Notes under the pieces: generated by a model
Databases searched by the model: none
The model's input: the letters and a program-made list of their open reading frames with translations, nothing else
Told to the model about the DNA's origin: nothing
In this document: in pieces, positions 22,683 to 43,861 of the stretch
Numbering within the stretch: position 1 is the first letter of the stretch
Layout: every line of letters begins with the position of its first letter
Program-made: the position numbers and the translations under genes
Assembly: GCA_016741915.1 (NCBI GenBank)
Contig: JACVCS010000005.1
Span: 1,385 to 65,384 of the forward strand
DNA length: 64,000 bases
Direction of reading: 5' to 3'
From: Phycisphaerales bacterium
GTDB taxonomy: Bacteria; Planctomycetota; Phycisphaerae; Phycisphaerales; UBA1924

Positions 22683-22769
22683 GACAGATTCCTCAGCATT
22701 GTGAGTGACGTTGGGTCAACGGATCGGCTCGGGTGATCGTCGGCGTGTCGGCCGAACGGGTTGATCTGC

Positions 22770-24590
22770 TTATCTGCTTTCGCTGGTGATTTTCTGCAGG
22801 GCCGCCTCGAGCGCTTCAAGGCGGGCCTTGAGCTGTGCATTATCGGCATCTCGTTTGGTGAGTTCGGCCTTGAGCATTTCGAGCTGACGGTCCTTCTCTT
22901 GACGCAGGTCACGCAGGGCTTCGACCATCAGGGCGGTGGTGGCACGTTCGGTGACGAAGCGGGTGCCGGTGGCGTCGGTGCTGACCCAATCTGGGAAGAC
23001 GCGAGCGACTTCGTCGGCCATGAGGCCGAACTGTGTGCCGGGCAGGGCTTGCCCGCTGGCGACGCGATCGTCGTTGTAGAGGAAGGAGTAGCCGCGGAGG
23101 CTCATGAGTTTGTCGAGAGTTCCCGTGAGCGGTGCGATGTCGTGCTTGGCGCGGGGATCAGAGAGGACACCCCATGACCCGCCACCGGGCTTCAGGGCCT
23201 GGCCGTCGGACTGGAAGCGGAAGCGTTCGAAGAGGCCGCCGCCGGTGGAGGTGGTGCAGATTCGGAAGGAGTCTGTGCCGGTGGTACTGTTGTTATCGCC
23301 GATGATCAGACGCAGCTCGGTCGAGTCGGCGGCGACGTTCACCCTCTGAAAGTACATGGCGTCGGTGTTCTCCGCGTTGCTGCCCTGGTCCGCGATGGGG
23401 CCGAAGTTCAGGCGCCCGCTGTTCGCTGAGGTGTTGATCTGGACATTGCCGGTCACGGTGAGTCGCTCGGGCGGGGCCGCACCGGAGGTGTCCCCGATGT
23501 TGACGTTGCCGTTCGCGTTGAGCAGGAGGTTCCAGGCGGAGTTGTAGAAGCCGATGTTGTCGTTGTCGCGCATGCCAACGAATGCTCGGTCGGTTGGGTT
23601 GGTGACGGGAGAAGCGAACCAGATGCCGGGCGAGCCGCCGCTGGTTCCGGACTCTCCGCGAACGCGGATGCGTCCGGGTGCGAGTTGCAACGCGGTGTTG
23701 GCGGTGTTGGCGAAAGCGGCGACACCGGCGGCGGCGTCGACGGACGAGGCCGGAGTGACATAGGTACGGAACCAGTAGTTGAAACCGCTCCCAGCGCGGG
23801 AACCGGCCGCACCGGGGATCGAGTTTGCTGCTTCTTGGATGACGATGTTGCCTGAGAAATCGAAGGTGTAAGGTGTGCCGGCCTGGACGAGGATGTTCGG
23901 AACGACGAGATCGCGTTGAAGTGGGGAAAAGTTGTTGCCGGGCAACAGGGCGGTGAAGGTGCTGATGAGGGGGCCGTTGGTTCCAACACCGATGTACACG
24001 CGCACGGTGAGCGTCTGCGGTGTCTGGCTGAGGGCGGAGCAGACGCGGAGTTGCAGTCGGGTGAGCTTGCCTGAGACGGACGGTGTCCAAGATTGCCACG
24101 CGGGTGAGATGGCACCCACGTTGAAAACGATCTGACCTGCAACGTCCTGCGCTTGATCGAGCGATTCGGGCCCTCCTCGCGTTATGGCGATTCCGGCGAG
24201 CCCTTGCGCGAGCGGCGCGGGTGTGAGGGCCTGGCGGGGTGAGAGGGTTGTGAAGGACCCCGCGCCGGCGGGTGTGCGGACACTGATTTCAACCCAACGA
24301 GGCTGACCATCATCAAAGGCGGCGCCGAAATCCAGAGGAACGGTGAAGAGGCCGTTGGTGACGGTGACGTTGGTGAGGTTGACGGCAGGGGCGATGGGCG
24401 ATCCACCGGTGAGCGTGGAGAAGAGCTCGGCGCGCAGGTCGATAACACCGGTGATCGGCGCGCTCGACGAAGAGAGAGAACCCTGGTAGGTGAAGGCGGT
24501 AGTGGATTGAGCGGCCGCAAACGGAACAAAGAGCAGCGCGGCGCAGAGACTGATGACAAGACCGCGAAGCGTACTGAAAGACATCGACAT
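22770..24590 (-). CDS. secreted fibre-like protein B: no P-domain, FTYQG module, type-2 middle, S74-like C-terminus (type 2)
   Basis: Trimmed to ATG 24588-24590 (MSMSFSTLRGLVISLCAALLFVPFAAAQ). The mature N-terminus goes directly into TAFTYQGSL...RWVEISVRTPAGAGSFTTLSPRQ. C-terminus SDPRAKHDIAPLTGTLDKLMSLRGYSFLYN...FGLMADEVARVFPDWV, followed by a coiled coil. Confidence 0.75.
   Translation of the reverse strand: MSMSFSTLRGLVISLCAALLFVPFAAAQSTTAFTYQGSLSSSSAPITGVIDLRAELFSTLTGGSPIAPAVNLTNVTVTNGLFTVPLDFGAAFDDGQPRWVEISVRTPAGAGSFTTLSPRQALTPAPLAQGLAGIAITRGGPESLDQAQDVAGQIVFNVGAISPAWQSWTPSVSGKLTRLQLRVCSALSQTPQTLTVRVYIGVGTNGPLISTFTALLPGNNFSPLQRDLVVPNILVQAGTPYTFDFSGNIVIQEAANSIPGAAGSRAGSGFNYWFRTYVTPASSVDAAAGVAAFANTANTALQLAPGRIRVRGESGTSGGSPGIWFASPVTNPTDRAFVGMRDNDNIGFYNSAWNLLLNANGNVNIGDTSGAAPPERLTVTGNVQINTSANSGRLNFGPIADQGSNAENTDAMYFQRVNVAADSTELRLIIGDNNSTTGTDSFRICTTSTGGGLFERFRFQSDGQALKPGGGSWGVLSDPRAKHDIAPLTGTLDKLMSLRGYSFLYNDDRVASGQALPGTQFGLMADEVARVFPDWVSTDATGTRFVTERATTALMVEALRDLRQEKDRQLEMLKAELTKRDADNAQLKARLEALEAALQKITSESR
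22905..23228. repeat. near-identical ~324-bp tract shared with 24763..25086 (3' ends of fibre genes B and C)
   Basis: Hand alignment at an offset of 1858 nt shows about a dozen mismatches. The tract encodes the type-2 S74-like domain. Confidence 0.85.
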
Positions 24591-24627
24591 ATCTGTGATC
24601 TCCGAGAGCAATCGTTCGTTTGAGTGT

Positions 24628-26496
24628 TTACTTGGGTTGATCAGCGCGTTCACGAGCGAGTTGGTTGATGAGCGACTTGAGCTGAGCCACTTCGGCTTTC
24701 AAGGCCTCGACTTCACGACGATCGGCGCTGGCCTGGGCCGCGACTTCGTCCTTTTCTCTCCGCAGATCACGCAGGGCCTCGACCATCAGGGCGGTGGTGG
24801 CGCGCTCGGTGACGAAGCGGGTGCCGGTGGCGTCGGTGGAGACCCAATCTGGGAAGACGCGGGCGACTTCGTCGGCCATGAGGCCGAACTGCGTGCCGGG
24901 CAGGGCTTGCCCGCTGGCGACGCGATCGTCGTTGTAGAGGAAGGAGTAGCCGCGGAGGCTCATGAGTTTGTCGAGAGTTCCCGTGAGCGGTGCGATGTCG
25001 TGCTTGGCGCGGGGATCGGAGAGGGCGGCCCATGATCCGCCGCCGGGCTTCAGGGCCTGGCCGTCGGACTGGAAGCGGAAGCGTTCGGTGAGGATGCCGC
25101 TGACGGAAGTGGTGCAGATGCGGAGCGAGTCGAGGTCGTTCGGGCCGCTGTTATCACCGATGACCAGGCGCAGCTCGGTCAAGTCGGTGCCGGCGTTGAT
25201 GCGGGAGAAGTAGACGGCGTCGGTGTTCTCGGCGCCGCTGCCTTCATCGCCGACGGTGCCGAAGGCGAGCTTGCTCGGCACGGAGGTGGTGCTGGTATTG
25301 AGCTGGGCATTGCCCGTGATGGTGAGACGCTCTGGGGGCGCAACACCCGAACCGTCACCGATGGCGATGTTGCCGTTGGCGTTTGCACGCAGGCGCCAGT
25401 CGCCGTTGATGAAGAAGCCGACGTTGTTATCGTCGCGCATTCCGACGAAGGCACGATCGGTCGGGTTGAACGCGGGCGACGCGAACCAGATTCCGGGCGA
25501 GTTGCTGGTCGTGCCGGTATCACCGCGGATGCGTTGACGGCCGGCGGCGAGCTGTGTGGCAGTGCTCGCGGTGAGGGCCAGGGTGGCGATCTGGGCGGTG
25601 CGTGCTTGCGGCACCGGGGTGATCGGCTGACGTGGACTGAGTGTGACGAAGCCCGAGCCGGGGGGCGACTCAACCTCGATGTTGAGCCAGAGTGCCTGGT
25701 CGGTATCGATGGCGGAGGCGAAGTCGAGGGTGGTGGTCACTCTGCCGGAAGAAATCGCGGTGAAAGATCTGGTGATCGCTGGAGCGATGTCGGAGATGTT
25801 TAACGGACGGCTCGGGTCGTTGCAGAGTGTGAAGCGAACGTTGGCATTGCCGTTGATCGGAACTCCAGATGCGGTGAGCACACCCTGATAGGTGAATGCG
25901 GTGGTGACGGTCTGTGGCGGGGCTTGGTCGAAGCTGATCGCCCAACCGCCGTCGAAGGTCCCGTCGTCTCCACTAGGGAAGTCGTCCAACACGTACAGAC
26001 TCCAAGTTCCGTTGGCGTTGGTGCCCAGGAGGGGGGAAAGCGAAGTCAGGTAAGGACCGGCCGGGGCTGGCGCGGGCAGGCTACTCGGCACGGAGTAGAC
26101 GGAACAGGCATAGACCCCGGAGACGACCGGGGCGGTGAATCCTGGAAGCGTCTGTGTGGCGTCGGATGCAAAGATCAAGTTTGCGTTCGAGGCATCGCCG
26201 GAGCCGTTGGTGTTTGCCATGAGCAGAATCTTCTGACCGGCGGGCGAAACCAGCAGCACGTTGACGTCGTTCGCCCACGTGTGGCTGAAGTTTTTCAGTT
26301 GCACCGTGACGTAACTGATCGAGGCGGGCCCGCCGGTGACGTTGATGGTGCTCGGGTAGATCAAGCCAACACCGTTGCTGGATGATGAAGGGAAAGCGAT
26401 GGGTGCTGGATTGCTAAACGTTTGCGCGCAAACCGAAAGCGGTGTGAGCAAAGCCGCGGTAAGCGTGCAGGCGAGAAAGTGGAAACGGGTATTCAT
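24628..26496 (-). CDS. secreted fibre-like protein C: P-domain-like N-terminus, type-2 middle, S74-like C-terminus (type 2)
   Basis: Trimmed to ATG 26494-26496 (MNTRFHFLACTLTAALLTPLSVCAQ). P-domain-like VLLVSPAGQKILL...NGTWSLYVLDDFPSGDDGTFDGGWAISF. ALWLNIEVESPPGSGFVTLSPRQ. The C-terminal ~110 aa are nearly identical to protein B. Confidence 0.8.
   Translation of the reverse strand: MNTRFHFLACTLTAALLTPLSVCAQTFSNPAPIAFPSSSSNGVGLIYPSTINVTGGPASISYVTVQLKNFSHTWANDVNVLLVSPAGQKILLMANTNGSGDASNANLIFASDATQTLPGFTAPVVSGVYACSVYSVPSSLPAPAPAGPYLTSLSPLLGTNANGTWSLYVLDDFPSGDDGTFDGGWAISFDQAPPQTVTTAFTYQGVLTASGVPINGNANVRFTLCNDPSRPLNISDIAPAITRSFTAISSGRVTTTLDFASAIDTDQALWLNIEVESPPGSGFVTLSPRQPITPVPQARTAQIATLALTASTATQLAAGRQRIRGDTGTTSNSPGIWFASPAFNPTDRAFVGMRDDNNVGFFINGDWRLRANANGNIAIGDGSGVAPPERLTITGNAQLNTSTTSVPSKLAFGTVGDEGSGAENTDAVYFSRINAGTDLTELRLVIGDNSGPNDLDSLRICTTSVSGILTERFRFQSDGQALKPGGGSWAALSDPRAKHDIAPLTGTLDKLMSLRGYSFLYNDDRVASGQALPGTQFGLMADEVARVFPDWVSTDATGTRFVTERATTALMVEALRDLRREKDEVAAQASADRREVEALKAEVAQLKSLINQLARERADQPK
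24763..25086. repeat. partner copy of 22905..23228
   Basis: See 22905..23228. Confidence 0.85.
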
Positions 26497-26563
26497 GTTC
26501 GAACTCCTGTGAGGGGATGGCAATCCGGTGGGTGGGGAAATGATGTCGATGCGCGTACACGCG

Positions 26564-28519
26564 TTACCGTAGCGTTGGACGCGGCTCCTTGAGCAACTGT
26601 TCAAGCCGGTCGAGTCGGGCCTTCAGCTCGGTGTTCTCCGCGTCGCGTTTGGCCAGTTCGCTCTCGAACTTTGCCTGCTGCTGCTTGATCGCCTGGATCG
26701 CCACCGCGGTCAGGCGTGAGTAATCCATGCCCGTGACCTTGCCCTCGGCGTCGTAGAAGACCACCTCGGGGAATACCTTGGCGACTTCTTCAGCAACGAA
26801 GCCGATGTCGTGCTCGCGACCGGGGCGGTCCTTGGCGAAGTCGGGGTTCCAATCGAAGGAAACACCTTCGAGCTTCAAGAGCTTGTCGAGCGCGTCGGTT
26901 ATCGGCGCGACGTTGTGCTTGAAGCGGCCCGACGAAGGGACGGCGACGTTGTTCGCCAGCACGTTGCCCGCGACGGTGAGACGCTGGCTGGGCGAGGTGG
27001 TGCCGATGCCAACATTGCCGTTGGCGTCGATGAGCATTCGCGCAGCCCCGGCGGAGCGGTCGACGATCTGGAACGAGCCGTTGAGTTGGCTTCCCGGGGG
27101 CGAGTTCGTCGATGAGGATTGGATCGACCAGGTGCGAGCGGCGGCGTTGCCGCCAGTTGCCGGGCCGCCGGTGAGTGCGATCTGCGTGTCGGAGTTGGTA
27201 ACGAGGTGCAGCGGGAAGGTCGGCGTGATCGTTCCGAGGCCGATGTTTCCGTTGGGCAGGAAGGTCATGCGGACGGCGGCGGAGGTTCCGTCGCGGATCA
27301 AGAACGCACCGGCGAGTTCGGTGTTGCTGGGACCGGTCGAAACCAACTGCCAGGTGCGTCCGTCGATGGCACCGTTTCGAATCGCAAGCCAAGTGCCAAA
27401 GCCGGAGCCGCTGTCGAAGAGGACCTGATCGAAGGTGATTCCCGAAAAGACGTGGAGGTTCGCAGAGGGCGATGGGGTACCGATGCCGACGCGCCCGAGG
27501 CTATAACTGATCTGGTTTGTGCCGGCGTCCCATGGGCTGAAGGCGTTGCTGACGTTTGCGGGCACGCCGGTGATTCCCGTCCATGGGACCGAGTTGGCGG
27601 TTACGGCCGAAGTCGCCGTCGTGGCGATGCGTGCCTGCGGCGCGGGAGTCAGAGGCTGGCGGGGTGAAAGGGTGACGAACCCCGAGCCCGGGGGGCTTTC
27701 GACTTCGATCTGCAGCCACTGAGCGCGGTCGGTCTTCAACTGACGCCCGATGTCGACGCTGGCACTGAAGAGGCCGTTCTGCACCGCGACGGCGTTGACG
27801 GTGCTGATGTTCCCTATGCGCAGAGCTTCGGAAGTCGAGGTTGGGTTTTCCCACACGGAGAATCGGAAGTTCGCGGTGGAACTGCTCGGAGCGTTCTCGA
27901 GCTTGCCTTGGTAGGTGAACGCGTTGGACTGAGAAGTTGCCGCCGGCAAGAACTCGATCGACCAACCGCCGGTGATAACCAACGGATCTGCCGGTGCGAA
28001 CGAATCGGACACGAATAGCTGCCAGTTTCCGTTGGCCTGAGTGCCCGTCAATGATGAAAGCGTGGCGTTGTACGGACCGCCCGGTGCCGGTGACGGGGCT
28101 GAGAAGTTGACGGAGGAGGTGGTGAGATAAACCCCGGAAACAAAGTTCGTGGAGGTTGTTGCGGGGGCTGTCGTTGCCTCAGCGAAAAACGTGGCGGTGG
28201 TGTTGACGGCATCGCCGCTGCCGAAGTTTCCGTTCAGGAGCGCGATCGCCTGTCCACCCGGGCTGACGAGAACGATGCGAATATCAGAGCACCAGGTGTG
28301 GTTGATCCCGTTGATGGTCACCGCGACGCGTTGAACCGTGTTGCCCGCCAATGCCCCGCTGGGCACGGTGATCACACTTGGGTAGAGATTTGCGGTGGTT
28401 TCGTTGAGCGGCACGCTCAACGGGGTCGCGTTGGAAAATGTCTGCGCACGCGCGGACGATTGCGCCAGGACAAGCACGCTCGATGCGGCGATGATCGGCA
28501 GGAGAAGACGCTTCAGCAT
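26564..28519 (-). CDS. secreted fibre-like protein D: P-domain-like N-terminus, type-1 middle, S74-like C-terminus (type 1)
   Basis: Trimmed to ATG 28517-28519 (MLKRLLLPIIAASSVLVLAQSSARAQ). IVLVSPGGQAIAL...NGNWQLFVSDSFAPADPLVITGGWSIEF. AQWLQIEVESPPGSGFVTLSPRQ. The C-terminal ~120 aa are nearly identical to protein A. Confidence 0.8.
   Translation of the reverse strand: MLKRLLLPIIAASSVLVLAQSSARAQTFSNATPLSVPLNETTANLYPSVITVPSGALAGNTVQRVAVTINGINHTWCSDIRIVLVSPGGQAIALLNGNFGSGDAVNTTATFFAEATTAPATTSTNFVSGVYLTTSSVNFSAPSPAPGGPYNATLSSLTGTQANGNWQLFVSDSFAPADPLVITGGWSIEFLPAATSQSNAFTYQGKLENAPSSSTANFRFSVWENPTSTSEALRIGNISTVNAVAVQNGLFSASVDIGRQLKTDRAQWLQIEVESPPGSGFVTLSPRQPLTPAPQARIATTATSAVTANSVPWTGITGVPANVSNAFSPWDAGTNQISYSLGRVGIGTPSPSANLHVFSGITFDQVLFDSGSGFGTWLAIRNGAIDGRTWQLVSTGPSNTELAGAFLIRDGTSAAVRMTFLPNGNIGLGTITPTFPLHLVTNSDTQIALTGGPATGGNAAARTWSIQSSSTNSPPGSQLNGSFQIVDRSAGAARMLIDANGNVGIGTTSPSQRLTVAGNVLANNVAVPSSGRFKHNVAPITDALDKLLKLEGVSFDWNPDFAKDRPGREHDIGFVAEEVAKVFPEVVFYDAEGKVTGMDYSRLTAVAIQAIKQQQAKFESELAKRDAENTELKARLDRLEQLLKEPRPTLR
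26681..27038. repeat. partner copy of 20811..21168
   Basis: See 20811..21168. Confidence 0.85.
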
Positions 28520-28618
28520 GATCAAACTCCAGTTTTGAGACGAAGTACACACGGCAGACAGCATGGCAGAAACCGGCTTTCGCGACGCGGGGGTTGCGAT
28601 TCAGGCATTCGGCAAGAG

Positions 28619-30208
28619 TCATCGCCCTCCAATGAGCGTGAAGGAAAACGCCGAGTCGATCTGAGCGCCGCCGCCGTTCGCGCAGCGAACGTCGACGAGC
28701 CCGGAGCCGTCGGGATTCAACGCGCCGCTGGTGGTGGTGACGATGACATTGGAGCTGATGGCGTTGCCGGTAAATGTCGGGAAGTCGCTGAACCCGTTCG
28801 GGCCTGTCCACTGAATCCGGTACAAACCGACACCGGTCCGGCTGACGGTGAAGCCCGATCCGCCGGTGACGGTGCCCAGGGCGCTCACCGAGCCGCGCGT
28901 GATGCGGAGCGTCTCACCCGCGCCCACTGCGGAGTACTGGCTGGTGTTCCCGAAGCGGATGTTGCCGCGGACATCAAGGCGGGCCTGCGGCGTGGTGTTG
29001 CCGATGGCGACGTTGCCGACTTCGTCGATGCGCATCAGTTCGCTGTAGCTGGAGCCGAGAGAAGATTCGACGCCGAAGCGAAGTGCGTTGCCGTTGCTCC
29101 AGATGATTGAACCGGGAGAACCGGCGCCTTGCAGGCTGGCGTAAAGGAAGTTGGTGCCGTTGGTCAGGCCGATGGTGGGAAGGTTTGAAAGCGACGAAGG
29201 CGAAGCGACCTGCAGCGACATCGATGGTTTCAGCACGCCGATGCCCACGCGCGAGGGGGTGCTGACCGACGCGGCGCCGCCGACGGTTTGGAGCTGCGAG
29301 CTCCACCCGCCGGAAACCACCGGCGGGACGGTCAGCGGCTGCCGCGGTGTGAGCTTGACAAAACCGGAGCCGGCGGGAGATTCAATCTCGACCTCGAGCC
29401 ACAGGGCGCGGTCGCCCGGGAGTGACTTGCCGAAGTCGACGTTCGCTGTGAAGACCCCTTGGTTCACAGGAATGGCGGAAACGGAGAGCGGCCCCAGCAG
29501 GCGCATCGCGCTGTTGCTGTTCGATGCCGACTGCCAGACCGAGAAGCGGGCGTTGATCGGGCCCGTCACGCCCGGGTTGAGCTTGCCCTGGTACGTGAAG
29601 GCGGTGGGAGTCGGCGTGGGGTCATCAAAGAACTCCAGTTCCCACCCGCCGGTGATGCTCAACGGGTCCGCGGCGGAGAATGAATCGGCAACATAGAGGC
29701 TCCAGAATCCGTTGCTGGCGACGCCGCTCAACGCGGCAAGCGTGCCTGTATACGGCCCGGCGGGCGCGGGCGCGATGAACGTGGAGATTCCATTCGGGTT
29801 CGGCACGTACGCACCCGAAGGCAGGTTGCTCCCGGGTTCAGGAATGGCCGCAGGTGCCTCGGCGAAGAATGTGACGGTGGCGTTGTTTGCATCGCCCGCA
29901 CCCGTGTTGTTTGCCAGCAGTTGGATCGGAGCGCCCACCGGCGGCACCAGCAGAATCTGTGCGTCGGCGAGCCACGTGTGGTTGAACCCCTTGATCGTCA
30001 CGGCGACCCGACGCACGACATTGCCGCTGACTCCGTTGAGCGGCACGTTGATCACGCTGGGGTAGAGCGAAGGGTAGTTTGTGCCGGGCGGACAGGTGAT
30101 CGCGCCGGTGTTGGAAAAGACCTGCGCGTGCGACGATGTTGCGAGCCCGAGGCACGAGGTCACGCAGGCGATGAACGAAGCACAGAAGGTGGCGAGCGGG
30201 TCTCTCAT
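28619..30208 (-). CDS. secreted fibre-like protein E: P-domain-like N-terminus, FTYQG module, distinct C-terminus without S74 domain
   Basis: 529 aa. Signal peptide CVTSCLGLATSSHAQ. ILLVPPVGAPIQL...NGFWSLYVADSFSAADPLSITGGWELEF. FTYQGKL...ALWLEVEIESPAGSGFVKLTPRQ. It ends in a different beta-rich domain (...GLYRIQWTGPNGFSDFPTFTGNAI...SFTLIGGR). Confidence 0.8.
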   Translation of the reverse strand: MRDPLATFCASFIACVTSCLGLATSSHAQVFSNTGAITCPPGTNYPSLYPSVINVPLNGVSGNVVRRVAVTIKGFNHTWLADAQILLVPPVGAPIQLLANNTGAGDANNATVTFFAEAPAAIPEPGSNLPSGAYVPNPNGISTFIAPAPAGPYTGTLAALSGVASNGFWSLYVADSFSAADPLSITGGWELEFFDDPTPTPTAFTYQGKLNPGVTGPINARFSVWQSASNSNSAMRLLGPLSVSAIPVNQGVFTANVDFGKSLPGDRALWLEVEIESPAGSGFVKLTPRQPLTVPPVVSGGWSSQLQTVGGAASVSTPSRVGIGVLKPSMSLQVASPSSLSNLPTIGLTNGTNFLYASLQGAGSPGSIIWSNGNALRFGVESSLGSSYSELMRIDEVGNVAIGNTTPQARLDVRGNIRFGNTSQYSAVGAGETLRITRGSVSALGTVTGGSGFTVSRTGVGLYRIQWTGPNGFSDFPTFTGNAISSNVIVTTTSGALNPDGSGLVDVRCANGGGAQIDSAFSFTLIGGR

Positions 30209-31693: not shown

Positions 31694-31972
31694 TCAGTGC
31701 GTGAAGTTCGCGTGCGGGCCGGCGGCGGCGGCGGCGGAGCGGTCGATGATCGGGCCGTCGACGTTGTTGGCGGCGATCTCGATGCCAGGCGTGTTGGCGG
31801 CGTTGACGGCGGTGCGCAGCCCGATCTCGGCGAGGGCTTTTTGGGTCGAAGCCGCCGGCCCCAGCGGCGGAGACAACGGCCCGGCCAGGGCGGTGCTCTG
31901 AACCATCACCGCGGCGAGGATCAGCGCCGCCGCGGCGCACGCGGTGCGCACGGTGGCACGGCGGAGGCTCAC
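31694..31972 (-). CDS. small secreted protein, possibly a truncated N-terminal fragment of a larger surface protein
   Basis: GTG 31970-31972. Signal peptide (M)SLRRATVRTACAAAALILAAVMVQSTALA|GPLSPPLGPAASTQKALAEIGLRTAVNAANTPG... Third-codon positions are almost all G/C. It stops after about 60 mature residues. Confidence 0.4.
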   Translation of the reverse strand: MSLRRATVRTACAAAALILAAVMVQSTALAGPLSPPLGPAASTQKALAEIGLRTAVNAANTPGIEIAANNVDGPIIDRSAAAAAGPHANFTH

Positions 31973-32259
31973 CGCACCGGAACGCGGCGAGGGCTCGGCG
32001 GGGTTCGTCGGATGCTTGCGGTTCAGCGTCGAACGGTCGGTGCGGGTGCTCGTGCCGAGAATCGACCACGCACAAGCGGAACTGGCCACTGGGCACGGGC
32101 GGCCCTCCAGCGGCCGTGCCCCGATCGGCACGGCGGCGGCCCGCACGCCGGCGCTCGCGCGGCGGAGGGTCGACAAAGCACCGCCCGCGCCGGCGTACGC
32201 GGGGCGCACGCGGCCGAACCGAACGCACGCCCACGCCAGCGCCGCACAGGTCCACACGA

Positions 32260-32574
32260 ACGCAACGCACGTGCAGACCACCGTCAGAAAAGTCTGGGCC
32301 AACGTCAGAAAAGTCTTGACGAATGTGAGGAAAGTCCTGACGAACGTGAGAAAAGTCTTGGCAAACGTGAGAAAAGTCTTGGCAAACGCCAGAAAAGTTC
32401 ACACCAACGCCACGTTCCATCACACCAACGCCGCATTCCATCACAGGAACGGAGCATTCCTTCAGACAAACGCGACGTTCGATCACACAAACGCGACGTT
32501 CCATCACACCAACGCGGCATTCCATCACACCAACGCGGCATTTCTTCAGGCCTACGCAGCGTTTGGTTCGGCGA
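32260..32574 (+). repeat. tandem array of 15 head-to-tail 21-bp units in two subfamilies (plus ~2 degenerate units from ~32218)
   Basis: The units read from the sequence are as follows. One unit ACGCAACGCACGTGCAGACCA. Six A-type units (consensus ACGTGAGAAAAGTCTTGGCAA, 32281-32406). Seven B-type units (consensus ACGCGACGTTCCATCACACCA, 32407-32553). One decayed unit (32554-32574). The period is exactly 21 bp throughout. Confidence 0.9.
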
Positions 32575-32731
32575 TTAACGCGCGGGCATTGATTTCGACG
32601 TGTAAAGACCACTTTTATTGGGCGAGAGCCCGGGCGAAACTGCCCTCTGAATCGACTTCAATCGTACGATTCTGCTTGCTGCTTGCATTCGGCTGAAACA
32701 TGAAATCAGCACACCGCTCCTCTGTCGGGTT

Positions 32732-35617
32732 TCACTCCGGCGGCGAATGAAATGCTGAGCCGGGATCGAGCTTCGGCAGCTCACTTCGTGCCCAACTGAT
32801 CGCCGAGTTGGCGAAAATCTCTATTTGGTCTTGAGGCGTCTGGATGGGATCGCACTGCGCCAAGCACTTGATCAACTCTGTGCGATCAAACAGACGCTGA
32901 GCGAAACGCTCATCGACCGTTCCTTGCCATACGGAAGTGGAACGGGAGAAGAACTGTATGTTCGATTCCTCTTCTTCATCGATATCGCTCATCCGTCCAT
33001 TCACGATGAATGACGCCAGAATCAATCTGCCTGTCTTCGGTTGGAGTTTCGTAAATGCGAGAATCGAACGGGCGACACCCGGCCACCCTTCGAACGGCTC
33101 GGCGTTCGGAAGTCCGGCTCGGATCCGATCAAGGCCCCAAGACAGGTGGTAAAGATCCCACGGGCGGTGTGGATTCACGGCATGCACAAGCTTCTGCCAT
33201 CCGTGCTCGTTGCCGAAGTTGGCAACGAGAGCTTGTTCAAGCAGCTGTCGAGTGGAACCGTGAGCAACGATACCTTCAGTTGAACCCTTTTCGTGAACGT
33301 GCTCGGCCCGCAACCAGTCGGTGATTTCATCGGCAACAGAGAGGTTCCTTGGAAGGAACTCCAGGAGAAGCGGCTCGAGGACTTTGCGAACTTCAACGGG
33401 ATGGATCTGACCTTCATGAATAACTGTCTGAACATGATTGATCTTGCTGAAGTGATCTCCAACGCTCCATCCCGATTTTGGTAGATCCGCAAGAGCTCGG
33501 ATGTAGGCGGGGAGCAACTCTCGCCATGTTGACCGGATCTTGGCCTGCCCAAACTGGCTCGCAGCAAACTCGAACCGAGAATCGGCCAGTCGAAATGGAA
33601 AGGAAAAACGATCAGACTCAGGCCATGCGGCAATTTCGCCTAACAGCAACTGATCGCTCTCGTCTTTATCGACGGGTGACTGGCTCAAGAATCTTGGCCA
33701 GTAATCTCGAATCCGGGTGCTTGCGAAACCCTGAGGCCAGACCGACCACCAGTGACGATCATACTGAGATACCTGGACGTAGTGGGGGATGAGATAGTGG
33801 GCAAGGCTGCGTACAGCGATCGCCCGATCAACCGGGAGTTTTGCCGCGGTCGCCTCAACTTGCATGGTGCTCTCTTTGGATGGGCTGTGTTGCTCGCCGC
33901 TGGCGCGTCGAGCTTCGCTTCTCAGCCCGCTGAGCTCTCGGTCAAAAATGGCGAAGAACCCCGGCTCGCACTCACGCAGCACAATCGCCGCCAAGGCGTG
34001 ATCGAAATCGATCTCGCCGGGGAGAGTGGTCCACAGTTCGATGACCCGTCGTAGAACAGACTTCAACATTCGAGGTGTTGTAGCCAACACCAGAATCGCT
34101 TCCCATGGTTCCAGCAATCGTTGCGGCGGAGGTGCGAGTACGACCCCTGTGTGCGCTCGGTACTGAGGCGGTACCATCAGTTCGCGATGTGTCCGATCAG
34201 CGGTGTCGATCACAGGTCGGGGGAAGCCGTTCAGGCATGCGCCGCGGACCGTGCTGATGACGTGCCAAGCGCACTGGACTTCTATTCGCGGCATCCGCTC
34301 AACGTATCGTGCAATCTTGCTGTGGTCGAACCGAGAAGTCAGCGAAGTGTCGGCCATCACCAACGAAACGTAGGGACAGCGGTCGAGCAGATGGAGCAAC
34401 GCCCTCACCGGCCCCAGTTTGCCTTCATCGACGGGGTTTGCATCGGTTGTGGCGTCGCCGTCAATGCCACCAAAGCGTTCGAAATCCTCGATCCAGAGTA
34501 CGAAACGCAGCCCGGTGGCTCCGGCAATGCTCGCGAACTTGTCCAGAACATGCTTCGGCTCGGTCTTTCGCGCCATCAAGCCCGCGATCATGTCTGTCCA
34601 CGTCGCCGAGCGTTGAACACTGCTCACGTAATCGTTCGCGATCCCGGTGATGGCCAAGGTATCAACGTGACGTGACAGCTCCGTCGCGAGCGAGTCAAGA
34701 ATCCCGTGCAATGCCGCCTCAGCCGAAGCGAAAGGCCAAAGCGACACGGTGACGACCCGGATATGCGGTTTGGTCCGCAGTTCATGAATGACCAAGTTTC
34801 GGATCGAAGACTTGCCCGATCCTCGTTGCCCAATGAGGGTCGTGGTTTCGCCTTTTTCGTTCTCTGCAAGCCGAGCTGCGATCCGCTTTGCGATGGGGGT
34901 ATGACGGAATGCGTCGTTGATCGGCGTGCGGATCTCGTCGTCCGTCTCGATCCAAGCCCTGACCTTGTCAAACGTGCTGAGATCGTTGACGTACGACCGA
35001 GCCTGTGGAATCGCAGGGGAACGGCCAACAAAGCCGTGACGACGCTGCCATAACCACGTCCAGAGCGCGTTGGCGAACGAAGCGTCGTCGATTCCATCCA
35101 ACCAGTCCCGAAACCACCTTCGCCGTATCGTCCACCGAAAGCTCGCGAAGATGACGAACACCATTGCGATGAGCAGAAATACTCTCTGCGCGTTGTTGGC
35201 ATTGCTCCAAAACTGATTCAGTCCATACACAATGTCGTTTAGATCAGAACGAACCCGCCACGACTCGGGAAAAAAGAAGACCAGAACGAGTCCCATGGCT
35301 GAAGAAACCCAGACAGGCGGATAGAGAGGAAGGTACCGTAGACCAATCACCCCTTCGAGTGGGCGAAGGCCCATGATCAACCAGTAAGCCGGAATCGACG
35401 CGAGAACAAGCCAGAATATGACTGCGTGTTCCCGCCTAGCGAGCCAATCCGAAGCAGGCTCGCAGTACTGCTGCAGGGCTTCACCCGCAAGCATCATCGT
35501 CAGTGCCGCGATGAGCGCGTAGATACTGATCACGCACCAACGAGCGAGTGAGTGCACCAGCAACTGGGGTATGGAGTTCGGACCTACCGGCGTCATTGGC
35601 GATACTCTGGTAAACAT
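32732..35617 (-). CDS. membrane-anchored KAP-like P-loop NTPase (4 N-terminal TM helices)
   Basis: ORF 32732..35734 with the start set at ATG 35615-35617 (35594-35596 is an alternative). TM helices: VISIYALIAALTMMLAG, VIFWLVLASIPAYWLIMGL, YPPVWVSSAMGLVLVFFF, VFLLIAMVFVIFASF. Then DAFRHTPIAKRIAARL, Walker A LIGQRGSGKSS and Walker B RFVLWIEDFERF. The C-terminal region of about 550 aa is helical. Hand-counted samples give about 47-53% G+C. Confidence 0.75.
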   Translation of the reverse strand: MFTRVSPMTPVGPNSIPQLLVHSLARWCVISIYALIAALTMMLAGEALQQYCEPASDWLARREHAVIFWLVLASIPAYWLIMGLRPLEGVIGLRYLPLYPPVWVSSAMGLVLVFFFPESWRVRSDLNDIVYGLNQFWSNANNAQRVFLLIAMVFVIFASFRWTIRRRWFRDWLDGIDDASFANALWTWLWQRRHGFVGRSPAIPQARSYVNDLSTFDKVRAWIETDDEIRTPINDAFRHTPIAKRIAARLAENEKGETTTLIGQRGSGKSSIRNLVIHELRTKPHIRVVTVSLWPFASAEAALHGILDSLATELSRHVDTLAITGIANDYVSSVQRSATWTDMIAGLMARKTEPKHVLDKFASIAGATGLRFVLWIEDFERFGGIDGDATTDANPVDEGKLGPVRALLHLLDRCPYVSLVMADTSLTSRFDHSKIARYVERMPRIEVQCAWHVISTVRGACLNGFPRPVIDTADRTHRELMVPPQYRAHTGVVLAPPPQRLLEPWEAILVLATTPRMLKSVLRRVIELWTTLPGEIDFDHALAAIVLRECEPGFFAIFDRELSGLRSEARRASGEQHSPSKESTMQVEATAAKLPVDRAIAVRSLAHYLIPHYVQVSQYDRHWWSVWPQGFASTRIRDYWPRFLSQSPVDKDESDQLLLGEIAAWPESDRFSFPFRLADSRFEFAASQFGQAKIRSTWRELLPAYIRALADLPKSGWSVGDHFSKINHVQTVIHEGQIHPVEVRKVLEPLLLEFLPRNLSVADEITDWLRAEHVHEKGSTEGIVAHGSTRQLLEQALVANFGNEHGWQKLVHAVNPHRPWDLYHLSWGLDRIRAGLPNAEPFEGWPGVARSILAFTKLQPKTGRLILASFIVNGRMSDIDEEEESNIQFFSRSTSVWQGTVDERFAQRLFDRTELIKCLAQCDPIQTPQDQIEIFANSAISWARSELPKLDPGSAFHSPPE

Positions 35618-36050
35618 GACCCCTCTGACTTGGCAGTGTACTCCGATCAACGACCGAGTGAACAGCGGTACAGTTGTCGGGCTCTCAAGATAAAGACACC
35701 CCGATATCGATTTCAACGCGGGAACCTTCCACAATACCCCGCCAGACTACGTGTGTGTGTCGATATCATCCGTTCGGACGCGCAATAAACTCCTGGCTCC
35801 CCCTGCTCATGGGTGGCATCTTTCAGAATCTTGCGCGCCGCAAGCGGCAGATCCGGCGTTCTTCGCCGGATTCTCCGCGGGTGTGGCGTCCATTCTCGCA
35901 CATGTCACAATCATCAATAAAAAAATCACGTCCAACTCAAGTGTGATGACGACTCTTCCGAACTCATCTTGACTCCCGCGCGTTGTTGCGTGGGGTCAAC
36001 ATCACATGGCCCGGGCCTTCCGTTTCGCCTCGGGCTTCGGAGGTCTTATT

Positions 36051-36749
36051 ATGTCCACCCTGCCCGACAAACGCGAGGAACTTATCACTTGGTGCCAGGC
36101 CCACGCTCCCGTCTGGGAGAGCAACCCCGCCTCCATCGGCCTGACCGTCGCCCAGGCCAACGCCTTTATCGACCTGACCGAAGAGGCCCAAACCGCGCTT
36201 TTGAACCAGGAAAAGGCCAAGCAAGCCGCACTGAGCGCCACCAACTCGGCGCAGGAGACCATCGGCGATCTGCGCTCCATGGCCGGGGAGTTTTTGCGCA
36301 CCATCCGCGCTTTCGCCGCCACGACCAACAACCCGCAGGTCTTCATCAACGCCCAGATCCCGCCCACCGCCGCCCCCTCGCCCGTCGGGCCCCCCGGCAC
36401 CCCCGACAACTTCAAAATCGCCCTCGACACGCAAGGGGCTATCACCTTACGTTGGAAATGCCAGAACCCGGGCGCGGCCAGCGGCACTTCGTACATCGTC
36501 CGCCGCCGGTTCGGTTCCAGCGGCGAGTTCCTCTTCGTCGGCGTGGCGAACAAAAAGACCTTCACCGATTCGACGATCTCCGGCAACGTCTCGCAGGTGC
36601 AGTACACCGTGCAGGCCGTGCGCTCGGACCAGAGCGGCCCGCTGAGCCAGACCGTCGTGGTCCGCTTCGGCTCGGGCGGCGCCGGCGGCGGGCAGATCCT
36701 CAGCGTCACCAGCGGCGAGCCCGGCGACAACGTCAAGCTCGCGGCGTGA
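36051..36749 (+). CDS. hypothetical protein with C-terminal fibronectin type III-like domain
   Basis: Start set at ATG 36051 (MSTLPDKREELITW). The N-terminal ~120 aa are helical. After PPGTPDNF comes IALDTQGAITLRWKCQNPGAASGTSYIVRRRF...FTDSTISGNVSQVQYTVQAVRSDQSGPLS (FN3 W/Y/L pattern). No signal peptide. Confidence 0.6.
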   Translation: MSTLPDKREELITWCQAHAPVWESNPASIGLTVAQANAFIDLTEEAQTALLNQEKAKQAALSATNSAQETIGDLRSMAGEFLRTIRAFAATTNNPQVFINAQIPPTAAPSPVGPPGTPDNFKIALDTQGAITLRWKCQNPGAASGTSYIVRRRFGSSGEFLFVGVANKKTFTDSTISGNVSQVQYTVQAVRSDQSGPLSQTVVVRFGSGGAGGGQILSVTSGEPGDNVKLAA

Positions 36750-36845
36750 GACGGGAAGGGCCGAGGGTTCAGGGCCGAGGGCCGAGTGGGTGTATTCAAC
36801 GCCCGGTTGCCCGGCGGCCACGGACGCATGAAGCATCACCGCACC

Positions 36846-36876
36846 AAGCCCCGGTCATCACCGGGGCTTTTTGTTT
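36846..36876 (+). terminator. rho-independent terminator after the FN3 gene
   Basis: AAGCCCCGG (36846-54), loop tcatca, CCGGGGCTT (36861-69), then TTTTGTTT. Confidence 0.7.
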
Positions 36877-36944
36877 CCGGCCAGCGGCGGGGGTGCGTGC
36901 GTCGGTGATGAACCGTTGTTGACGGTTTGTTATACTGCCGATCT

Positions 36945-38156
36945 ATGGAAGCGAAGCAGAGTTCCAACGACCCCACCCCGCTGCTCGACGCGCTCGTCAC
37001 CGACGACGACCTGCAGCGCTTGGAAGACCGGCTCGGCGCCTTCAACGTCTTTGAGGCCCTCGGCGTTGTCCGCGCCGAGGTTCGGCACAGCAATTTTCTG
37101 GCGTGGCTGCTCGACCCGATGGAATCGCACGGCCGCGGCGATCTGTTCCTTAAGGCCGTGCTCATGGACATGCTCAAGAACGCACCGGCGGACCTGCGCC
37201 CGCTCTCGGCGGCCCACCTCGACGGGGCCGACCTTGACAGCGCCGAAGTCCGCCGCGAGTGGCGGCGCATCGACCTCTTGGTTATCTGCAAGGAACAGAA
37301 CTTTGCGGTGATCATCGAGAACAAGGTCGACAGCGGCGAGCACTCCAGCCAGCTCGAACGCTACGAGCAGATCGCCCGCACCGAGCTGCCGGGCATGCGG
37401 CATTTTTTCGTCTTTTTGACCCCCGACGGCGACGCGGCCAGCGACAAGGACTGGGTGGCGTACTCGTACGCGCAGCTCCACGGCGTGCTCCGCCGCGTGC
37501 GCGACCACGCCGAGCAATCTTTCGGACCAGATGTGAAGATCTTCCTGGATCATTACCTCTCGCTTGTGAGCAACCACATGATGAACGACGAAGAGATCGA
37601 CGAGCTGTGCAGGCGTATCTACAAGCGTCACCAGGAAGCGATCGACCTTGTTGTCGAACGCGCGATGGGCGAAAGCCCGATCCAGGCGGCCTTGCATGAT
37701 CTGGTGGCGGCCCAGAGCGATCGTTGGGTGATTACCAAACGCAACAAAACTGAGGTGCGGTTCGTGCCAAAGCCGTGGTACGACGTACTTCCCCCGGTGC
37801 GTGAGGCGTACAAGGATCACCGCAGCGGCTGGATCGCCTGCTACCTCTGGTGCAAGGACGGGTACCTGGAGTTCTCGGTGTGGATCCTGAAAACATCGAA
37901 CCCCGAGGTGCAGGAACGCGTGGCGAAGCGCCTGTTGCAATCGCCCGACGAGTTCGGGTTCGCCCTCAAACGCCGCAGGCAGATCGTCGGCACTCAGGCG
38001 TTGCAGCTTGTCAGCAAAGCCATCGACGACTGGGGCGAGCACGGCGAGCCGGACGAGGACTCGGTGATCGAAAAGACCAAACGCGAGCTCGACGCGCTCT
38101 GGTCACGCGTGCCGGCGGTGACGGAGGCGATTCGGAGTGTTCTGGCCACTGGCTGA
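36945..38156 (+). CDS. PD-(D/E)XK nuclease superfamily protein
   Basis: Start ATG 36945 (MEAKQSSND). N-terminal FNVFEALGVVRAEVRHSNFLAWLLDP...HGRGDLFLKAVL, then the core RIDLLVICKEQNFAVIIENKVDSGEHSSQLERY (D...E-x-K). This pattern is typical of the 'PD-(D/E)XK nuclease family protein' group (PDDEXK-type Pfam families). Confidence 0.75.
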   Translation: MEAKQSSNDPTPLLDALVTDDDLQRLEDRLGAFNVFEALGVVRAEVRHSNFLAWLLDPMESHGRGDLFLKAVLMDMLKNAPADLRPLSAAHLDGADLDSAEVRREWRRIDLLVICKEQNFAVIIENKVDSGEHSSQLERYEQIARTELPGMRHFFVFLTPDGDAASDKDWVAYSYAQLHGVLRRVRDHAEQSFGPDVKIFLDHYLSLVSNHMMNDEEIDELCRRIYKRHQEAIDLVVERAMGESPIQAALHDLVAAQSDRWVITKRNKTEVRFVPKPWYDVLPPVREAYKDHRSGWIACYLWCKDGYLEFSVWILKTSNPEVQERVAKRLLQSPDEFGFALKRRRQIVGTQALQLVSKAIDDWGEHGEPDEDSVIEKTKRELDALWSRVPAVTEAIRSVLATG

Positions 38157-38195
38157 ACGCCCGCTCGGCGCGAATGAACGAAGCACAACGAAAAG

Positions 38196-38225
38196 AGCCC
38201 CGGGCTGACCCGGGGCTTCTTTCTT
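38196..38225 (+). terminator. hairpin terminator between the convergent nuclease gene and atpD
   Basis: AGCCCCGG, loop gctgac, CCGGGGCT, then TCTTTCTT. The A-run upstream (38191-38194) could serve the minus-strand atpD as well. Confidence 0.6.
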
Positions 38226-38287
38226 GCGATCGTTGTTTGCGGCTTTGGTGCTTTGCCCTTTGCTGTTTTCAGGGCGAAGCCCGCCAC

Positions 38288-41171
<2,884 letters not shown>

Positions 41172-42560: not shown

Positions 42561-42633
42561 GGGTAGGTAGCTCAGTTGGTAGAGCACCGCATTGAAAATG
42601 CGGGTGTCGCCGGTTCAAGTCCGGCCCTGCCCA
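42561..42633 (+). tRNA. tRNA-Phe (GAA)
   Basis: Cloverleaf folded by hand. Acceptor GGGTAGG pairs with CCTGCCC. D-arm is GCTCAGTTGGTAGAGC. The anticodon loop is tTGAAAa, giving GAA. T-arm is GCCGG-TTCAAGT-CCGGC. The discriminator is A. No CCA is encoded. Confidence 0.9.
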
Positions 42634-43861
42634 CTTGGCCCGATTCTCTGGTAACGCACTCGGGCGCATCGACCCGCAAACCCCGCTGGAAACGCGGGGT
42701 TTTGCTTTTTGCAGGTTCTTCGGTGCCCTTCGATTCGCCCCCATGCCGCGGCGTATTTCCCGTCACGCCGCCCGTGGCGCGGGTCCAATCGGCATCGGTG
42801 ACTTGCAGGTAATGCCCCGCCGCGATCGCCTTCGTGTTGCCGATCCACGCACAAACCGTGTGCAGCGGGAACGTCGCCGCCAGTTCGGTTTGCCGACTTG
42901 CCCGCAGGTTGTGCCACGTCCGATCCCACGGCGTCAGCCCCGCTCGCTTGATGATCCGCCGGAAATGCGGATTCAGGTTTGCGCCTTCCCGATACCGCCC
43001 GATCACAAACACCGCGCCTTCGGGTGCGGCATCAAACACCGCTTGCAGGTGCTCTCGAATCTCAGGGAACAGCGGGATGATCCGCTCCCCCTTGCCTTCG
43101 TGGTGTTCGGTCTTGGGGCTTCGCACCGTCAGCCGGTTGTGTTCCCAATCCACGTCCGACCACCGCAGGGCAAGGGCTTCGCTCGGAACGCGCAGCCCGC
43201 CGAACCGGGACAATGCAATCAACAGCCGCCATTCGGCATCGGGTGCCGCATCGATCACCTTGGCGATCGACTCCCGCGACACGAACACCGCGCGGGCGTG
43301 GTTCACTTGCGCACCCGCCTTCAACTCCGCGAACGGGTTGGCGCTCGCCATGCCGCGACGCATCGCCCAGCGCCACACTTGACGGGCGTACAGAACCGTC
43401 CGGCTGATCGTCGCGGGCGCATACCCCGCGTTGATGAGACTCGCCCGCCATTCGTCCGCGTCGGCTTCCCCGATCGTCGCCACATTGCGGGCTTCAGTGA
43501 AGTGTTCCACCAGCGCCGCCTCAACTTGTTTCATCCGTATCAACGTGGCGGGCTTCACATTCACGCCAGCGAAGAACGCCGCGAGAAGCGTGCCGACGGT
43601 CGAGTCGGTGCGGGCGCGTGCGGGCACCAGCCCGATCCGGGCCAACTTCGCGTGCAGGTCATCGGGAACGGTGCGGACCCATTCACCCGTGGCGGGTGAG
43701 AGAAGCCCGGACACCGACGCGCCTGCCAGGTTCTCGATATGGCCCTTGATCGCGTCGGCTTGCTTCGGCTGAAGCTTGCCGATGCGGATGGTGCGGCGCT
43801 TGCCGCCGAACGCCATCTCAACCCGGAACCGTCCGCCGCCGTCGTGGATGAGGCTCGCCAT
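42572..43861 (-). CDS. tyrosine-type site-specific integrase
   Basis: 429 aa. SAM-like N-domain. Catalytic region RFGGLRVPSEALALRWSDVD...HNLRASRQTELA...VCAWIGNTKAIAAGHYL (R...HxxR...H...Y). The last ~20 codons (GLEPATPAFSMRCSTN) are the antisense of tRNA-Phe. Confidence 0.9.
   Translation of the reverse strand: MASLIHDGGGRFRVEMAFGGKRRTIRIGKLQPKQADAIKGHIENLAGASVSGLLSPATGEWVRTVPDDLHAKLARIGLVPARARTDSTVGTLLAAFFAGVNVKPATLIRMKQVEAALVEHFTEARNVATIGEADADEWRASLINAGYAPATISRTVLYARQVWRWAMRRGMASANPFAELKAGAQVNHARAVFVSRESIAKVIDAAPDAEWRLLIALSRFGGLRVPSEALALRWSDVDWEHNRLTVRSPKTEHHEGKGERIIPLFPEIREHLQAVFDAAPEGAVFVIGRYREGANLNPHFRRIIKRAGLTPWDRTWHNLRASRQTELAATFPLHTVCAWIGNTKAIAAGHYLQVTDADWTRATGGVTGNTPRHGGESKGTEEPAKSKTPRFQRGLRVDAPECVTRESGQVGRAGLEPATPAFSMRCSTN
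42614..42630 (+). repeat. attL core (inside tRNA-Phe T-arm/acceptor)
   Basis: TTCAAGTCCGGCCCTGC, identical to 51807-51823. Confidence 0.85.

Follow-up and report, generated by a model that had tools for sequence, protein, structure and literature searches.

Do three neighbouring genes that together look like a defence system form one? The question is raised by an interval of 5.4 kb in a 64,000-nucleotide (nt) stretch of DNA from a Phycisphaerales bacterium, referred to here as the window; all coordinates are window positions unless a contig is named. The interval contains the gene of a membrane-spanning P-loop NTPase related to the KAP family (KAP-like NTPase) and, transcribed divergently from it, the genes of a 232-amino-acid (aa) protein with a helical and an FN3 domain and of a 403-aa PD-(D/E)XK nuclease. 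A first-pass annotation made by inspection had proposed that they act as membrane sensor, adaptor and nuclease effector of a single module. The three open reading frames (ORFs), with the domains ascribed to them, were found where that annotation had placed them. The module was not borne out: the adjacency of the three genes is a juxtaposition and not a conserved system. The interval is instead best explained, with a probability of about 0.6, as a small strain-variable slot for defence genes around the resident 232-aa gene.

Independence of the Three Genes

Co-occurrence was assessed in 37 KAP-like loci with flanks of up to 10 kb (about 35 of them non-redundant), which were fetched from public assemblies and include 29 loci from a collection holding one genome per GTDB species. 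When the nuclease and the 232-aa protein were compared with these loci by tblastn, a homologue of either was found in 0 of the 37, and clustering of the 719 flanking ORFs gave no neighbour family common to more than two loci. With no recurrent neighbour family, the KAP-like gene appears as a stand-alone unit, and the sensor–adaptor–effector arrangement failed the test that the first-pass annotation itself had set, that the genes travel together. The other two genes behave in the same manner. Elsewhere, loci of the FN3 family have no KAP-like gene and, the near-identical strain L088 apart, no nuclease either, while plasmid-borne relatives of the nuclease (family PDC-S26, discussed below) and a distant metagenome-assembled genome (MAG), L089, lack both partners.

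Base composition separates the genes as well. The KAP-like gene has a GC content of 56.5% compared with a window mean of 63.9%. Its 300-nt windows range from 52 to 60%, and just 30% of its 60-nt windows lie at or below 53%, so the earlier hand-counted estimate of 47–53% was too low. GC at third codon positions (GC3) is 0.63 in this gene and 0.82–0.90 in its neighbours, and against the 29 other genes of at least 250 aa it is an outlier with z = −3.1 for GC and −2.45 for GC3. The FN3 gene (66.5% GC, GC3 about 0.88–0.89) and the nuclease gene (62.8% GC, GC3 0.84) are native in composition. In the windowed profile the deviation from the mean is real, though smaller and narrower than had been claimed: the dip is confined to about 32.25–36.03 kb and consequently includes, of the three genes, the KAP-like gene alone. 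The KAP-like NTPase gene is foreign DNA. The proposal of a low-GC island of foreign origin thus holds for this gene and fails for the FN3 and nuclease genes. The dip corresponds to a block of about 3.8 kb that was probably acquired horizontally and would carry one self-sufficient gene.

Related contigs show how the pieces segregate. L009 and L010, which share 88% nucleotide identity with the window and 99% aa identity in AtpD, carry the 232-aa gene, a 166-bp terminator spacer and atpD, with neither nuclease nor KAP-like gene; upstream of the 232-aa gene they encode a 1168-aa protein that joins an alpha/beta-hydrolase-like part to NB-ARC/NACHT and TPR parts. L088 (91% nucleotide identity) has the 232-aa gene and the nuclease gene, again without the KAP-like gene; upstream, it encodes the C-terminal end of another TPR protein. 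Homology in blastn breaks at 36031 for L009 and at 35936 for L088, so the 232-aa gene itself, at 88–91% nucleotide identity, continues in strains that lack the KAP-like gene. The foreign block has no homology in the sister strains, where a STAND-TPR gene is found instead. The divergent intergenic region is divided accordingly: the KAP cassette extends over its left part, and just the final 20–115 bp are common to the sister strains. On the other side of the 232-aa gene, a segment with the nuclease gene that is present in L088 is replaced in L009 and L010 by the spacer, and is therefore present or absent by strain. In the distant Phycisphaerales MAG L089, a nuclease gene (49% identity to that of the window) converges on atpD (AtpD 84%), and both the 232-aa gene and the KAP-like gene are missing.

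Finally, the strong intrinsic terminator that had been predicted for the 232-aa gene was found, and it stands between the FN3 and nuclease genes. Given the lack of co-occurrence, the differing composition, this terminator and the separate segregation in related contigs, the three genes are regarded as independent.

The KAP-like NTPase

The translation start of the KAP-like gene is most likely one of two neighbouring ATG codons (Table 1), because a family-conserved "RW" motif ahead of the first transmembrane (TM) helix precedes the 933-aa database call. Kyte–Doolittle hydropathy gives four hydrophobic segments at residues 27–47, 65–84, 98–116 and 145–162 and none afterwards, in agreement with the four N-terminal TM helices of the first-pass annotation. 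Arg-rich stretches lie ahead of TM1 and behind TM4, and these positive-inside charges suggest an N-in/C-in topology with the NTPase in the cytoplasm. Among 25 family members, the Walker A motif GQRGSGKSS and the Walker B motif VLWIEDFERF are invariant in the family alignment; the invariant residues are G235, G238–K241, E349, D350, E352 and R353. The profile PF07693 (KAP_NTPase) matches with 34.5 bits (cut-off 20, E = 1.8e-8), over model positions 3–113 of 293 alone, and a precomputed match to it exists for 15 of 28 homologues. The KAP-type core that had been proposed is thereby upheld with a partial model match. It is followed by a conserved helical lid ("TPRxLK...GEIDFD") and then by about 450 aa of C-terminal sequence that is all-helical and more variable.

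An AlphaFold2 model calculated from the family alignment (mean predicted local distance difference test (pLDDT) 77.6, predicted template modelling score 0.70) begins with N-terminal helices and an alpha/beta NTPase, continues through a long stretch made up of helices and has a beta-hairpin close to the C-terminus; the long helical region had been anticipated as well. Foldseek searches of the PDB with this model returned ORC/Cdc6 AAA+ proteins, Avs4 (4.5e-4), the nucleotide-binding leucine-rich-repeat (NLR)-type proteins NRC, ZAR1 and Apaf-1, and RdrA. The query-normalised template modelling score of about 0.2 means that these matches cover the NTPase and the lid alone, and for the C-terminal half of the model no match was found in the PDB. 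A sequence profile compared with the PDB matched the P-loop (about 25 residues) of ABC transporters alone. Conservation is uneven along the chain: mean pairwise column identity peaks at 0.44 in the NTPase core and drops to its minimum, about 0.22, in the TM linker and over the last 400 aa. Such a profile is the pattern expected of a conserved switch with a diversifying sensor, to which the protein might correspond.

The family is large. A HMMER search over 1.84 billion representatives identified 1095 proteins at E ≤ 1e-30, of which the best 150 are all full-length (about 850–950 aa), and at 50% identity at least 150 full-length clusters are counted. An initial impression that the family is very rare came from a word-indexed search with 28 matches and was dropped. 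Its distribution is patchy: the 29 loci from one genome per GTDB species belong to Planctomycetota, Myxococcota, Thermoanaerobaculia (which we take to be Acidobacteriota) and one member of the Patescibacteria. No match to the family was found in PHROGs.

Several homologues have defence or mobile genes as neighbours. These include a type I restriction–modification (RM) system with Mrr and an integrase, DNA methyltransferases, an integrative element with a serine recombinase, Rep and ParDE, and the fvmX FtsH–MoxR conflict system. DISARM, Wadjet, Hhe, PDC-S03, PDC-S37, type IIG and type III RM enzymes, Uma2 and DDE transposases are also represented, and serine recombinases adjoin two of the homologues.

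Comparison with Known Systems

In 2026, single-gene NTPases combining TM helices and a KAP domain with uncharacterised C-terminal regions were reported to protect Enterococcus against phage, and Walker B and the C-terminal region are both needed for the protection (PLoS Biol, PMC13552941). The KAP-like NTPase of the window is best described as a putative variant of this validated class. Like EF_KAP and its metagenomic relatives, it stands alone as an ORF and joins TM helices and a KAP-type P-loop to a large C-terminus without known domain, and both groups come from variable or mobile regions. The differences concern topology and hosts. In the EF_KAP model a single TM helix is N-terminal and another lies within the KAP domain, while the present protein has four ahead of the NTPase and none inserted; EF_KAP and its relatives occur in Firmicutes and the present family in Planctomycetota and Myxococcota, a comparison made with EF_KAP by its published description.

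Membership in the KAP family itself deserves a comment. To judge from its title, the 2004 paper by Aravind et al. that defined the family is said to describe TM helices inserted within the NTPase domain. In the KAP-like protein no TM helix lies between or after the Walker motifs; a Walker A motif of the form GxxGxGK[ST] and an acidic Walker B motif are both present. The inserted helices are not a universal feature of KAP proteins, since a later description places the TM helices outside the P-loop domain and gives PifA as a protein without any (PMC13001434).

PifA, which mediates F-plasmid exclusion of T7 and is described as a KAP-family protein acting at the membrane (PMC13001434), is the best PADLOC match, through the N-terminal part of the NTPase. 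It shares the KAP-type P-loop and differs in having no TM helices compared with four, and the C-terminal regions are unrelated. Identity with PifA was rejected because model PDLC02361 is matched at positions 5–114 of 720 alone. QatA was likewise discarded, with 20.5 bits against a cut-off of 600 and no QatB-, QatC- or QatD-like neighbours in the window.

Tmn, a TM P-loop NTPase that belongs to the YobI family, uses a helical solenoid arm to sense a phage protein and exports Mg2+ (PMC13001434). It, too, lies in the membrane, is encoded by one gene and combines a P-loop NTPase with a helical cytosolic sensor of solenoid-like form, and an analogous mechanism, in which sensing leads on to ATP turnover and ion efflux, is plausible. 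However, Tmn belongs to a distinct family with two TM helices inserted in the P-loop domain; the KAP-like protein has no inserted helices and no Tmn match in the PADLOC scan, and this identity was not retained. STAND/Avs proteins and RdrA share a tripartite logic, in which an effector-like module at the N-terminus, an NTPase in the middle and a helical C-terminal region follow one another, and it is a STAND-TPR gene that takes the same genomic position in the sister strains. The KAP-like protein is nevertheless not assigned to STAND: the NB-ARC match reaches 12.7 bits (cut-off 23.5), fold similarity is weak and limited to the NTPase and lid, and no TPR, LRR or WD repeats were detected. The earlier statement that no named system could be recognised therefore stands for the NTPase, which is not PifA, QatA, Tmn or STAND by these tests, and is superseded for the nuclease.

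The PD-(D/E)XK Nuclease

The 403-aa protein matches PF14281 (PDDEXK_4) with 109.6 bits (cut-off 22.3, E = 2.3e-31), and D110, E125 and K127 are invariant in 20 homologues, which confirms the nuclease assignment. In PADLOC it matches PDC-S26 (PDLC04977) at 1.4e-101, with residues 18–404 aligned to model positions 8–394 of 400 (387 positions). Judged by this alignment, the nuclease is a full-length, ordinary member of PDC-S26, a predicted single-gene candidate that needs no partners. Payne et al. (bioRxiv, 10.1101/2024.01.29.577857) derived the PDC systems from genes that lie within BREX, DISARM and type I RM loci, a procedure called "guilt-by-embedding", and the "S" series comprises single-gene candidates. 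Structurally there is no difference between PDC-S26 and the window protein, which lies outside any BREX, DISARM or RM system. At least 539 homologues were found at E ≤ 1e-30, numerous ones from Planctomycetota at 40–49% identity. Homologues on plasmids stand alone among genes for Shedu, AbiGi, nucleotidyltransferase-type toxin–antitoxin systems and transposases. If the protein is a defence gene product, it presumably degrades invading DNA by itself.

The gene was at first considered a recent insertion. This view was softened once L089 showed the same adjacency to atpD. The adjacency in a distant MAG, set against the absence of the gene from an 88%-identical strain, can be read either as ancient residence followed by loss or as repeated insertion at the atpD terminator.

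The 232-aa Helical and FN3 Protein

The AlphaFold2 model of the 232-aa protein (pLDDT 84.8) consists of a helical hairpin (residues 8–24 and 33–92), a PPP-rich linker, an FN3 sandwich (119–205, strand pLDDT 85–94) and a disordered, Gly-rich tail (208–232). In Foldseek the sandwich superposes on FN3 domains of titin and of receptors (target-normalised template modelling score about 0.7, root-mean-square deviation about 2.4 Å), and the modelled domain has the seven-stranded beta-sandwich that characterises the fold. The description as a helical N-domain followed by FN3 is thus borne out at the level of the model. Searches of Pfam, PADLOC, NCBIfam and PHROGs gave no match. All of the 53 homologues apparently belong to Phycisphaerae, and the gene probably represents a lineage-resident family restricted to that class, without forming a system with either neighbour. 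An Ala-Ala C-terminus is present in 32 of 32 aligned members, mostly as ...K/R-L-A-A, behind the disordered Gly-rich tail; we take it to resemble an ssrA-type ClpXP degron.

What lies upstream of these genes varies. Distant family members are directly preceded by Cas9-Cas1-Cas2, NACHT-LRR, LRR-Roc-COR, Mrr with a Y1 transposase, AbiU/AIPR (PADLOC 3e-28) or a type IIG RM enzyme (5.5e-266), others by genes with housekeeping roles (IMPDH, RnfD and an LptD-domain gene). Defence-type genes were counted in about 8 of about 22 informative contexts, a share that looks high and is given without a matched control. Many contigs break within a few hundred bp of the gene, as expected for strain-variable DNA. 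The family may mark a defence hotspot in Phycisphaerae.

Proposed Mechanism and Alternatives

The gene structures and domains, the foreign composition of the KAP-like gene, the lack of co-occurrence, the strain polymorphism and the defence or mobile contexts of homologues are observations, while an antiphage function and each step of the mechanism that follows are inferred. By analogy, the odds lean somewhat towards the KAP-like protein being a stand-alone antiphage NTPase. In a mechanism modelled on the validated single-gene KAP NTPases, PifA, Tmn and STAND/Avs proteins, its four N-terminal TM helices would tether it to the inner membrane, and its variable, cytoplasmic helical C-terminus would recognise a phage-derived cue. 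Nucleotide binding or hydrolysis could then drive a conformational or oligomeric switch, upon which the TM module might disturb membrane integrity or ion balance, so that infection is halted or aborted. The perturbation of the membrane by the TM module is considered less likely than the stand-alone antiphage role as such. The 232-aa gene would be the resident of the slot, with a 5' flank that repeatedly hosts differing immune genes.

Several observations weigh against this picture. For the KAP-like protein, the PADLOC matches to PifA (3.3e-11) and QatA (2.8e-4) and the NCBIfam match to QatA (NF041923) cover about 110 residues around the P-loop, and domain scans recognised no effector domain. 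The family has no match in viral contigs or plasmids, numerous homologues have ordinary metabolic or housekeeping genes as neighbours, and the enrichment of defence neighbours is a rough estimate made without a matched control. The foreign block is not bounded by att repeats, an integrase or a transposase, and around both this block and the nuclease segment no convincing att-like direct or inverted repeats were seen. For the nuclease, the composition is native and the adjacency to atpD recurs in a distant MAG; the PDC systems, moreover, are 145 candidates that their authors list as untested (10.1101/2024.01.29.577857).

The nuclease may be a long-resident enzyme of housekeeping or repair type that was lost in L009, instead of a mobile defence gene. 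A role of this kind would fit its native GC3 and the convergent atpD adjacency in L089 equally well, and it agrees with the many Planctomycetota homologues and with the candidate status of PDC-S26. It has to accommodate, however, the presence or absence of the gene among strains of 88–91% nucleotide identity, its much faster divergence than that of its neighbours (91% for the nuclease in L088 compared with 99% for the adjacent FN3 protein), the derivation of the family from genes found inside BREX, DISARM or type I RM loci and the company of Shedu, AbiGi, toxin–antitoxin and transposase genes on plasmids. On balance it is thought unlikely, although it deserves serious consideration.

Somewhat less probable still is a non-immune function of the KAP-like protein as an accessory membrane signalling or assembly NTPase, for example a regulator of a membrane complex, that is found in variable regions by chance. 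Kidins220 and other eukaryotic KAP proteins serve as scaffolds in signalling (PMC13001434), and the missing effector domain, the resemblance to known folds in the NTPase part alone, the housekeeping neighbours and the absence from phage and plasmid collections would all suit such a role. It explains poorly why the family is distributed patchily across phyla, why the gene is foreign at this locus and why STAND NTPases hold the same position in sister strains; the recurrent RM, DISARM, Wadjet, toxin–antitoxin and integrase neighbours and the validation of stand-alone TM-KAP proteins as defences (PMC13552941) also argue for an immune protein.

It is improbable that the 232-aa protein is itself tied to the upstream immune gene, for which it could be a shared regulator, an anchor or a decoy, with its level controlled by the Ala-Ala tail. 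The idea draws on the share of defence-type 5' neighbours, on the invariance of the tail and on the promoter region of the 232-aa gene, which has been swapped together with the upstream cassette. Yet housekeeping genes precede numerous family members, the upstream partners are mechanistically unrelated, the 232-aa gene occurs in no KAP-like locus elsewhere, and the reading of the tail as a degron is tentative.

Hardly credible, lastly, is the original module of NTPase sensor, FN3 adaptor and nuclease effector: NTPase plus nuclease is a common design of defence systems, the three genes lie within 5.4 kb and the PADLOC scan of the window matched the KAP-like and nuclease genes alone, with no match at E ≤ 1e-5 among the other 41 ORFs, so that the clustering is non-random, but against this stand the 0 of 37 loci and the absence of a conserved neighbour, the transcription of the genes as separate units and the terminator that parts the FN3 gene from the nuclease gene, the discordant GC3 (KAP-like 0.63, FN3 about 0.88, nuclease 0.84), the independent presence or absence in L009, L088 and L089 and the solitary occurrence of a single-gene nuclease family on plasmids.

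Significance of the Locus

The preferred reading, a variable slot around a resident gene, avoids a three-gene defence-system annotation that is plausible and wrong, and it offers two single-gene candidates, the KAP-like gene and the PDC-S26 gene, from a poorly studied phylum. Either candidate by itself will not surprise specialists. More noteworthy are three points: KAP-like and STAND genes replace each other at one slot, the unnamed 4TM-KAP family is large, and the helical and FN3 gene has an unexplained link with immune genes. The alternation of KAP-like and STAND-TPR genes at one position in strains of 88–91% identity suggests functional equivalence. Tentatively, the 4TM-KAP-like proteins of Planctomycetota, Myxococcota and Acidobacteriota could be immune NTPases, each encoded by a single gene and acting at the membrane, that make up a large unnamed family. 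Their genes would be swappable with STAND NLR-like genes at one slot, and the helical and FN3 gene with its degron-like tail might mark or service a defence hotspot in Phycisphaerae. If so, the family would extend the stand-alone KAP defences to proteins with all TM helices N-terminal and to planctomycetotal and myxococcal hosts. Should the defence association of the helical and FN3 family hold against a control, the gene could serve as bait for immune genes of Phycisphaerae.

Layout of the Interval and Its Surroundings

The features of the interval and of the related contigs are collected in Table 1.

Table 1. Coordinates of the features discussed, in the window and in related contigs.
Feature	Sequence	Position	Strand	Remarks
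KAP-like NTPase ORF	window	32732..35734	-	1000 aa if read from TTG
KAP-like NTPase gene, likely start	window	32732..35617	-	ATG 35617 (961 aa) or next ATG (954 aa)
ORF with helical and FN3 gene	window	36006..36749	+	gene start 36051, 232 aa
Disordered C-terminus of 232-aa protein	window	36675-36746	+
ORF with PD-(D/E)XK nuclease gene	window	36927..38156	+	gene start 36945, 403 aa
Compositionally foreign block	window	32250..36030		tandem arrays, KAP-like gene, 5' intergenic region; 52–60% GC
Divergent intergenic region	window	35618..36050		433 bp, 55% GC
Intrinsic terminator of 232-aa gene	window	36846-36869	+	10-bp stem with 7 GC pairs, then T-run
Strain-variable segment with nuclease gene	window	36757..38286		1530 bp
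Bidirectional terminator of nuclease gene and atpD	window	38195-38218		hairpin
atpD	window	38288-39730		convergent with nuclease gene (36945-38156)
Nuclease gene	L089	8001-9224		convergent with atpD
atpD	L089	9319-10758		convergent with nuclease gene
Immune-type gene 5' of 232-aa family	L041	5254-9330
Immune-type gene 5' of 232-aa family	L055	1931-3940
Immune-type gene 5' of 232-aa family	L061	4556-8029
Immune-type gene 5' of 232-aa family	L074	1606-5739
Immune-type gene 5' of 232-aa family	L056	5912-9310
Immune-type gene 5' of 232-aa family	L009	6233-9739

Both borders that the first-pass annotation had drawn, a 21-bp tandem array on the left and the atpD terminator on the right, were recovered, the latter as a hairpin shared with the nuclease gene. 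The left border comprises two abutting 21-bp tandem arrays of different units, CGTCAGAAAAGTCTTGGCAAA (5.6 copies, 32282-32398) and TCACACCAACGCGACATTCCA (6.9 copies, 32399-32542). Both lie at the left end of the low-GC block, with the 3' end of the KAP-like gene on one side of them and the start of a minus-strand ORF (31694-32281) on the other. In L009, an inverted array of weak similarity lies to the left of the STAND gene (5585-5688). Rfam searches of 31.5–38.5 kb, which includes the arrays, gave no match. The divergent intergenic region contains a single weak sigma-70-like site on the minus strand (35716-35687).

The hairpins on the two sides of the nuclease gene (36847-36879 and 38196-38228) are 73% identical over 33 nt and share the sequence AGCCCCGG...CCGGGGCT plus a T-run. 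The pair could derive from duplication of a single ancestral bidirectional terminator, as is present in L009, or could reflect mere hairpin composition.

The immediate flanks of the interval are free of integrase genes, as had been stated, but a tyrosine integrase gene (42572-43861, minus strand) lies 4.4 kb to the right in a separate element. It abuts a tRNA-Phe gene (42561-42634) and overlaps its 3' end. Beyond it are genes for a Prim-Pol protein and a tape-measure-like (PhageMin_Tail) protein (44685-46898 and 48779-50719, both on the minus strand). Integrase, Prim-Pol and tape-measure-like genes together probably indicate a prophage remnant or an integrated element of its own, which conserved atpD and sucC, together with a 382-aa gene, set apart from the interval.

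Two further groups of genes were observed in the window. Three tandem paralogues of 658–672 aa (1745-3763, 3868-5886 and 6029-8005, plus strand) share 31–37% identity and all begin with MR(L/I)P..K(I/V)WRAFPELD. Their GC content of 0.59–0.61 is under the window mean, the first has no Pfam match and 0 of 3 match PADLOC. On the minus strand, 20691-30208 holds a run of five paralogous-looking genes (529–666 aa) with signal-peptide-like N-termini, the last two of which encode a proprotein-convertase P-domain (weak in one), with a Peptidase_S74 (endosialidase chaperone) domain also present in one.

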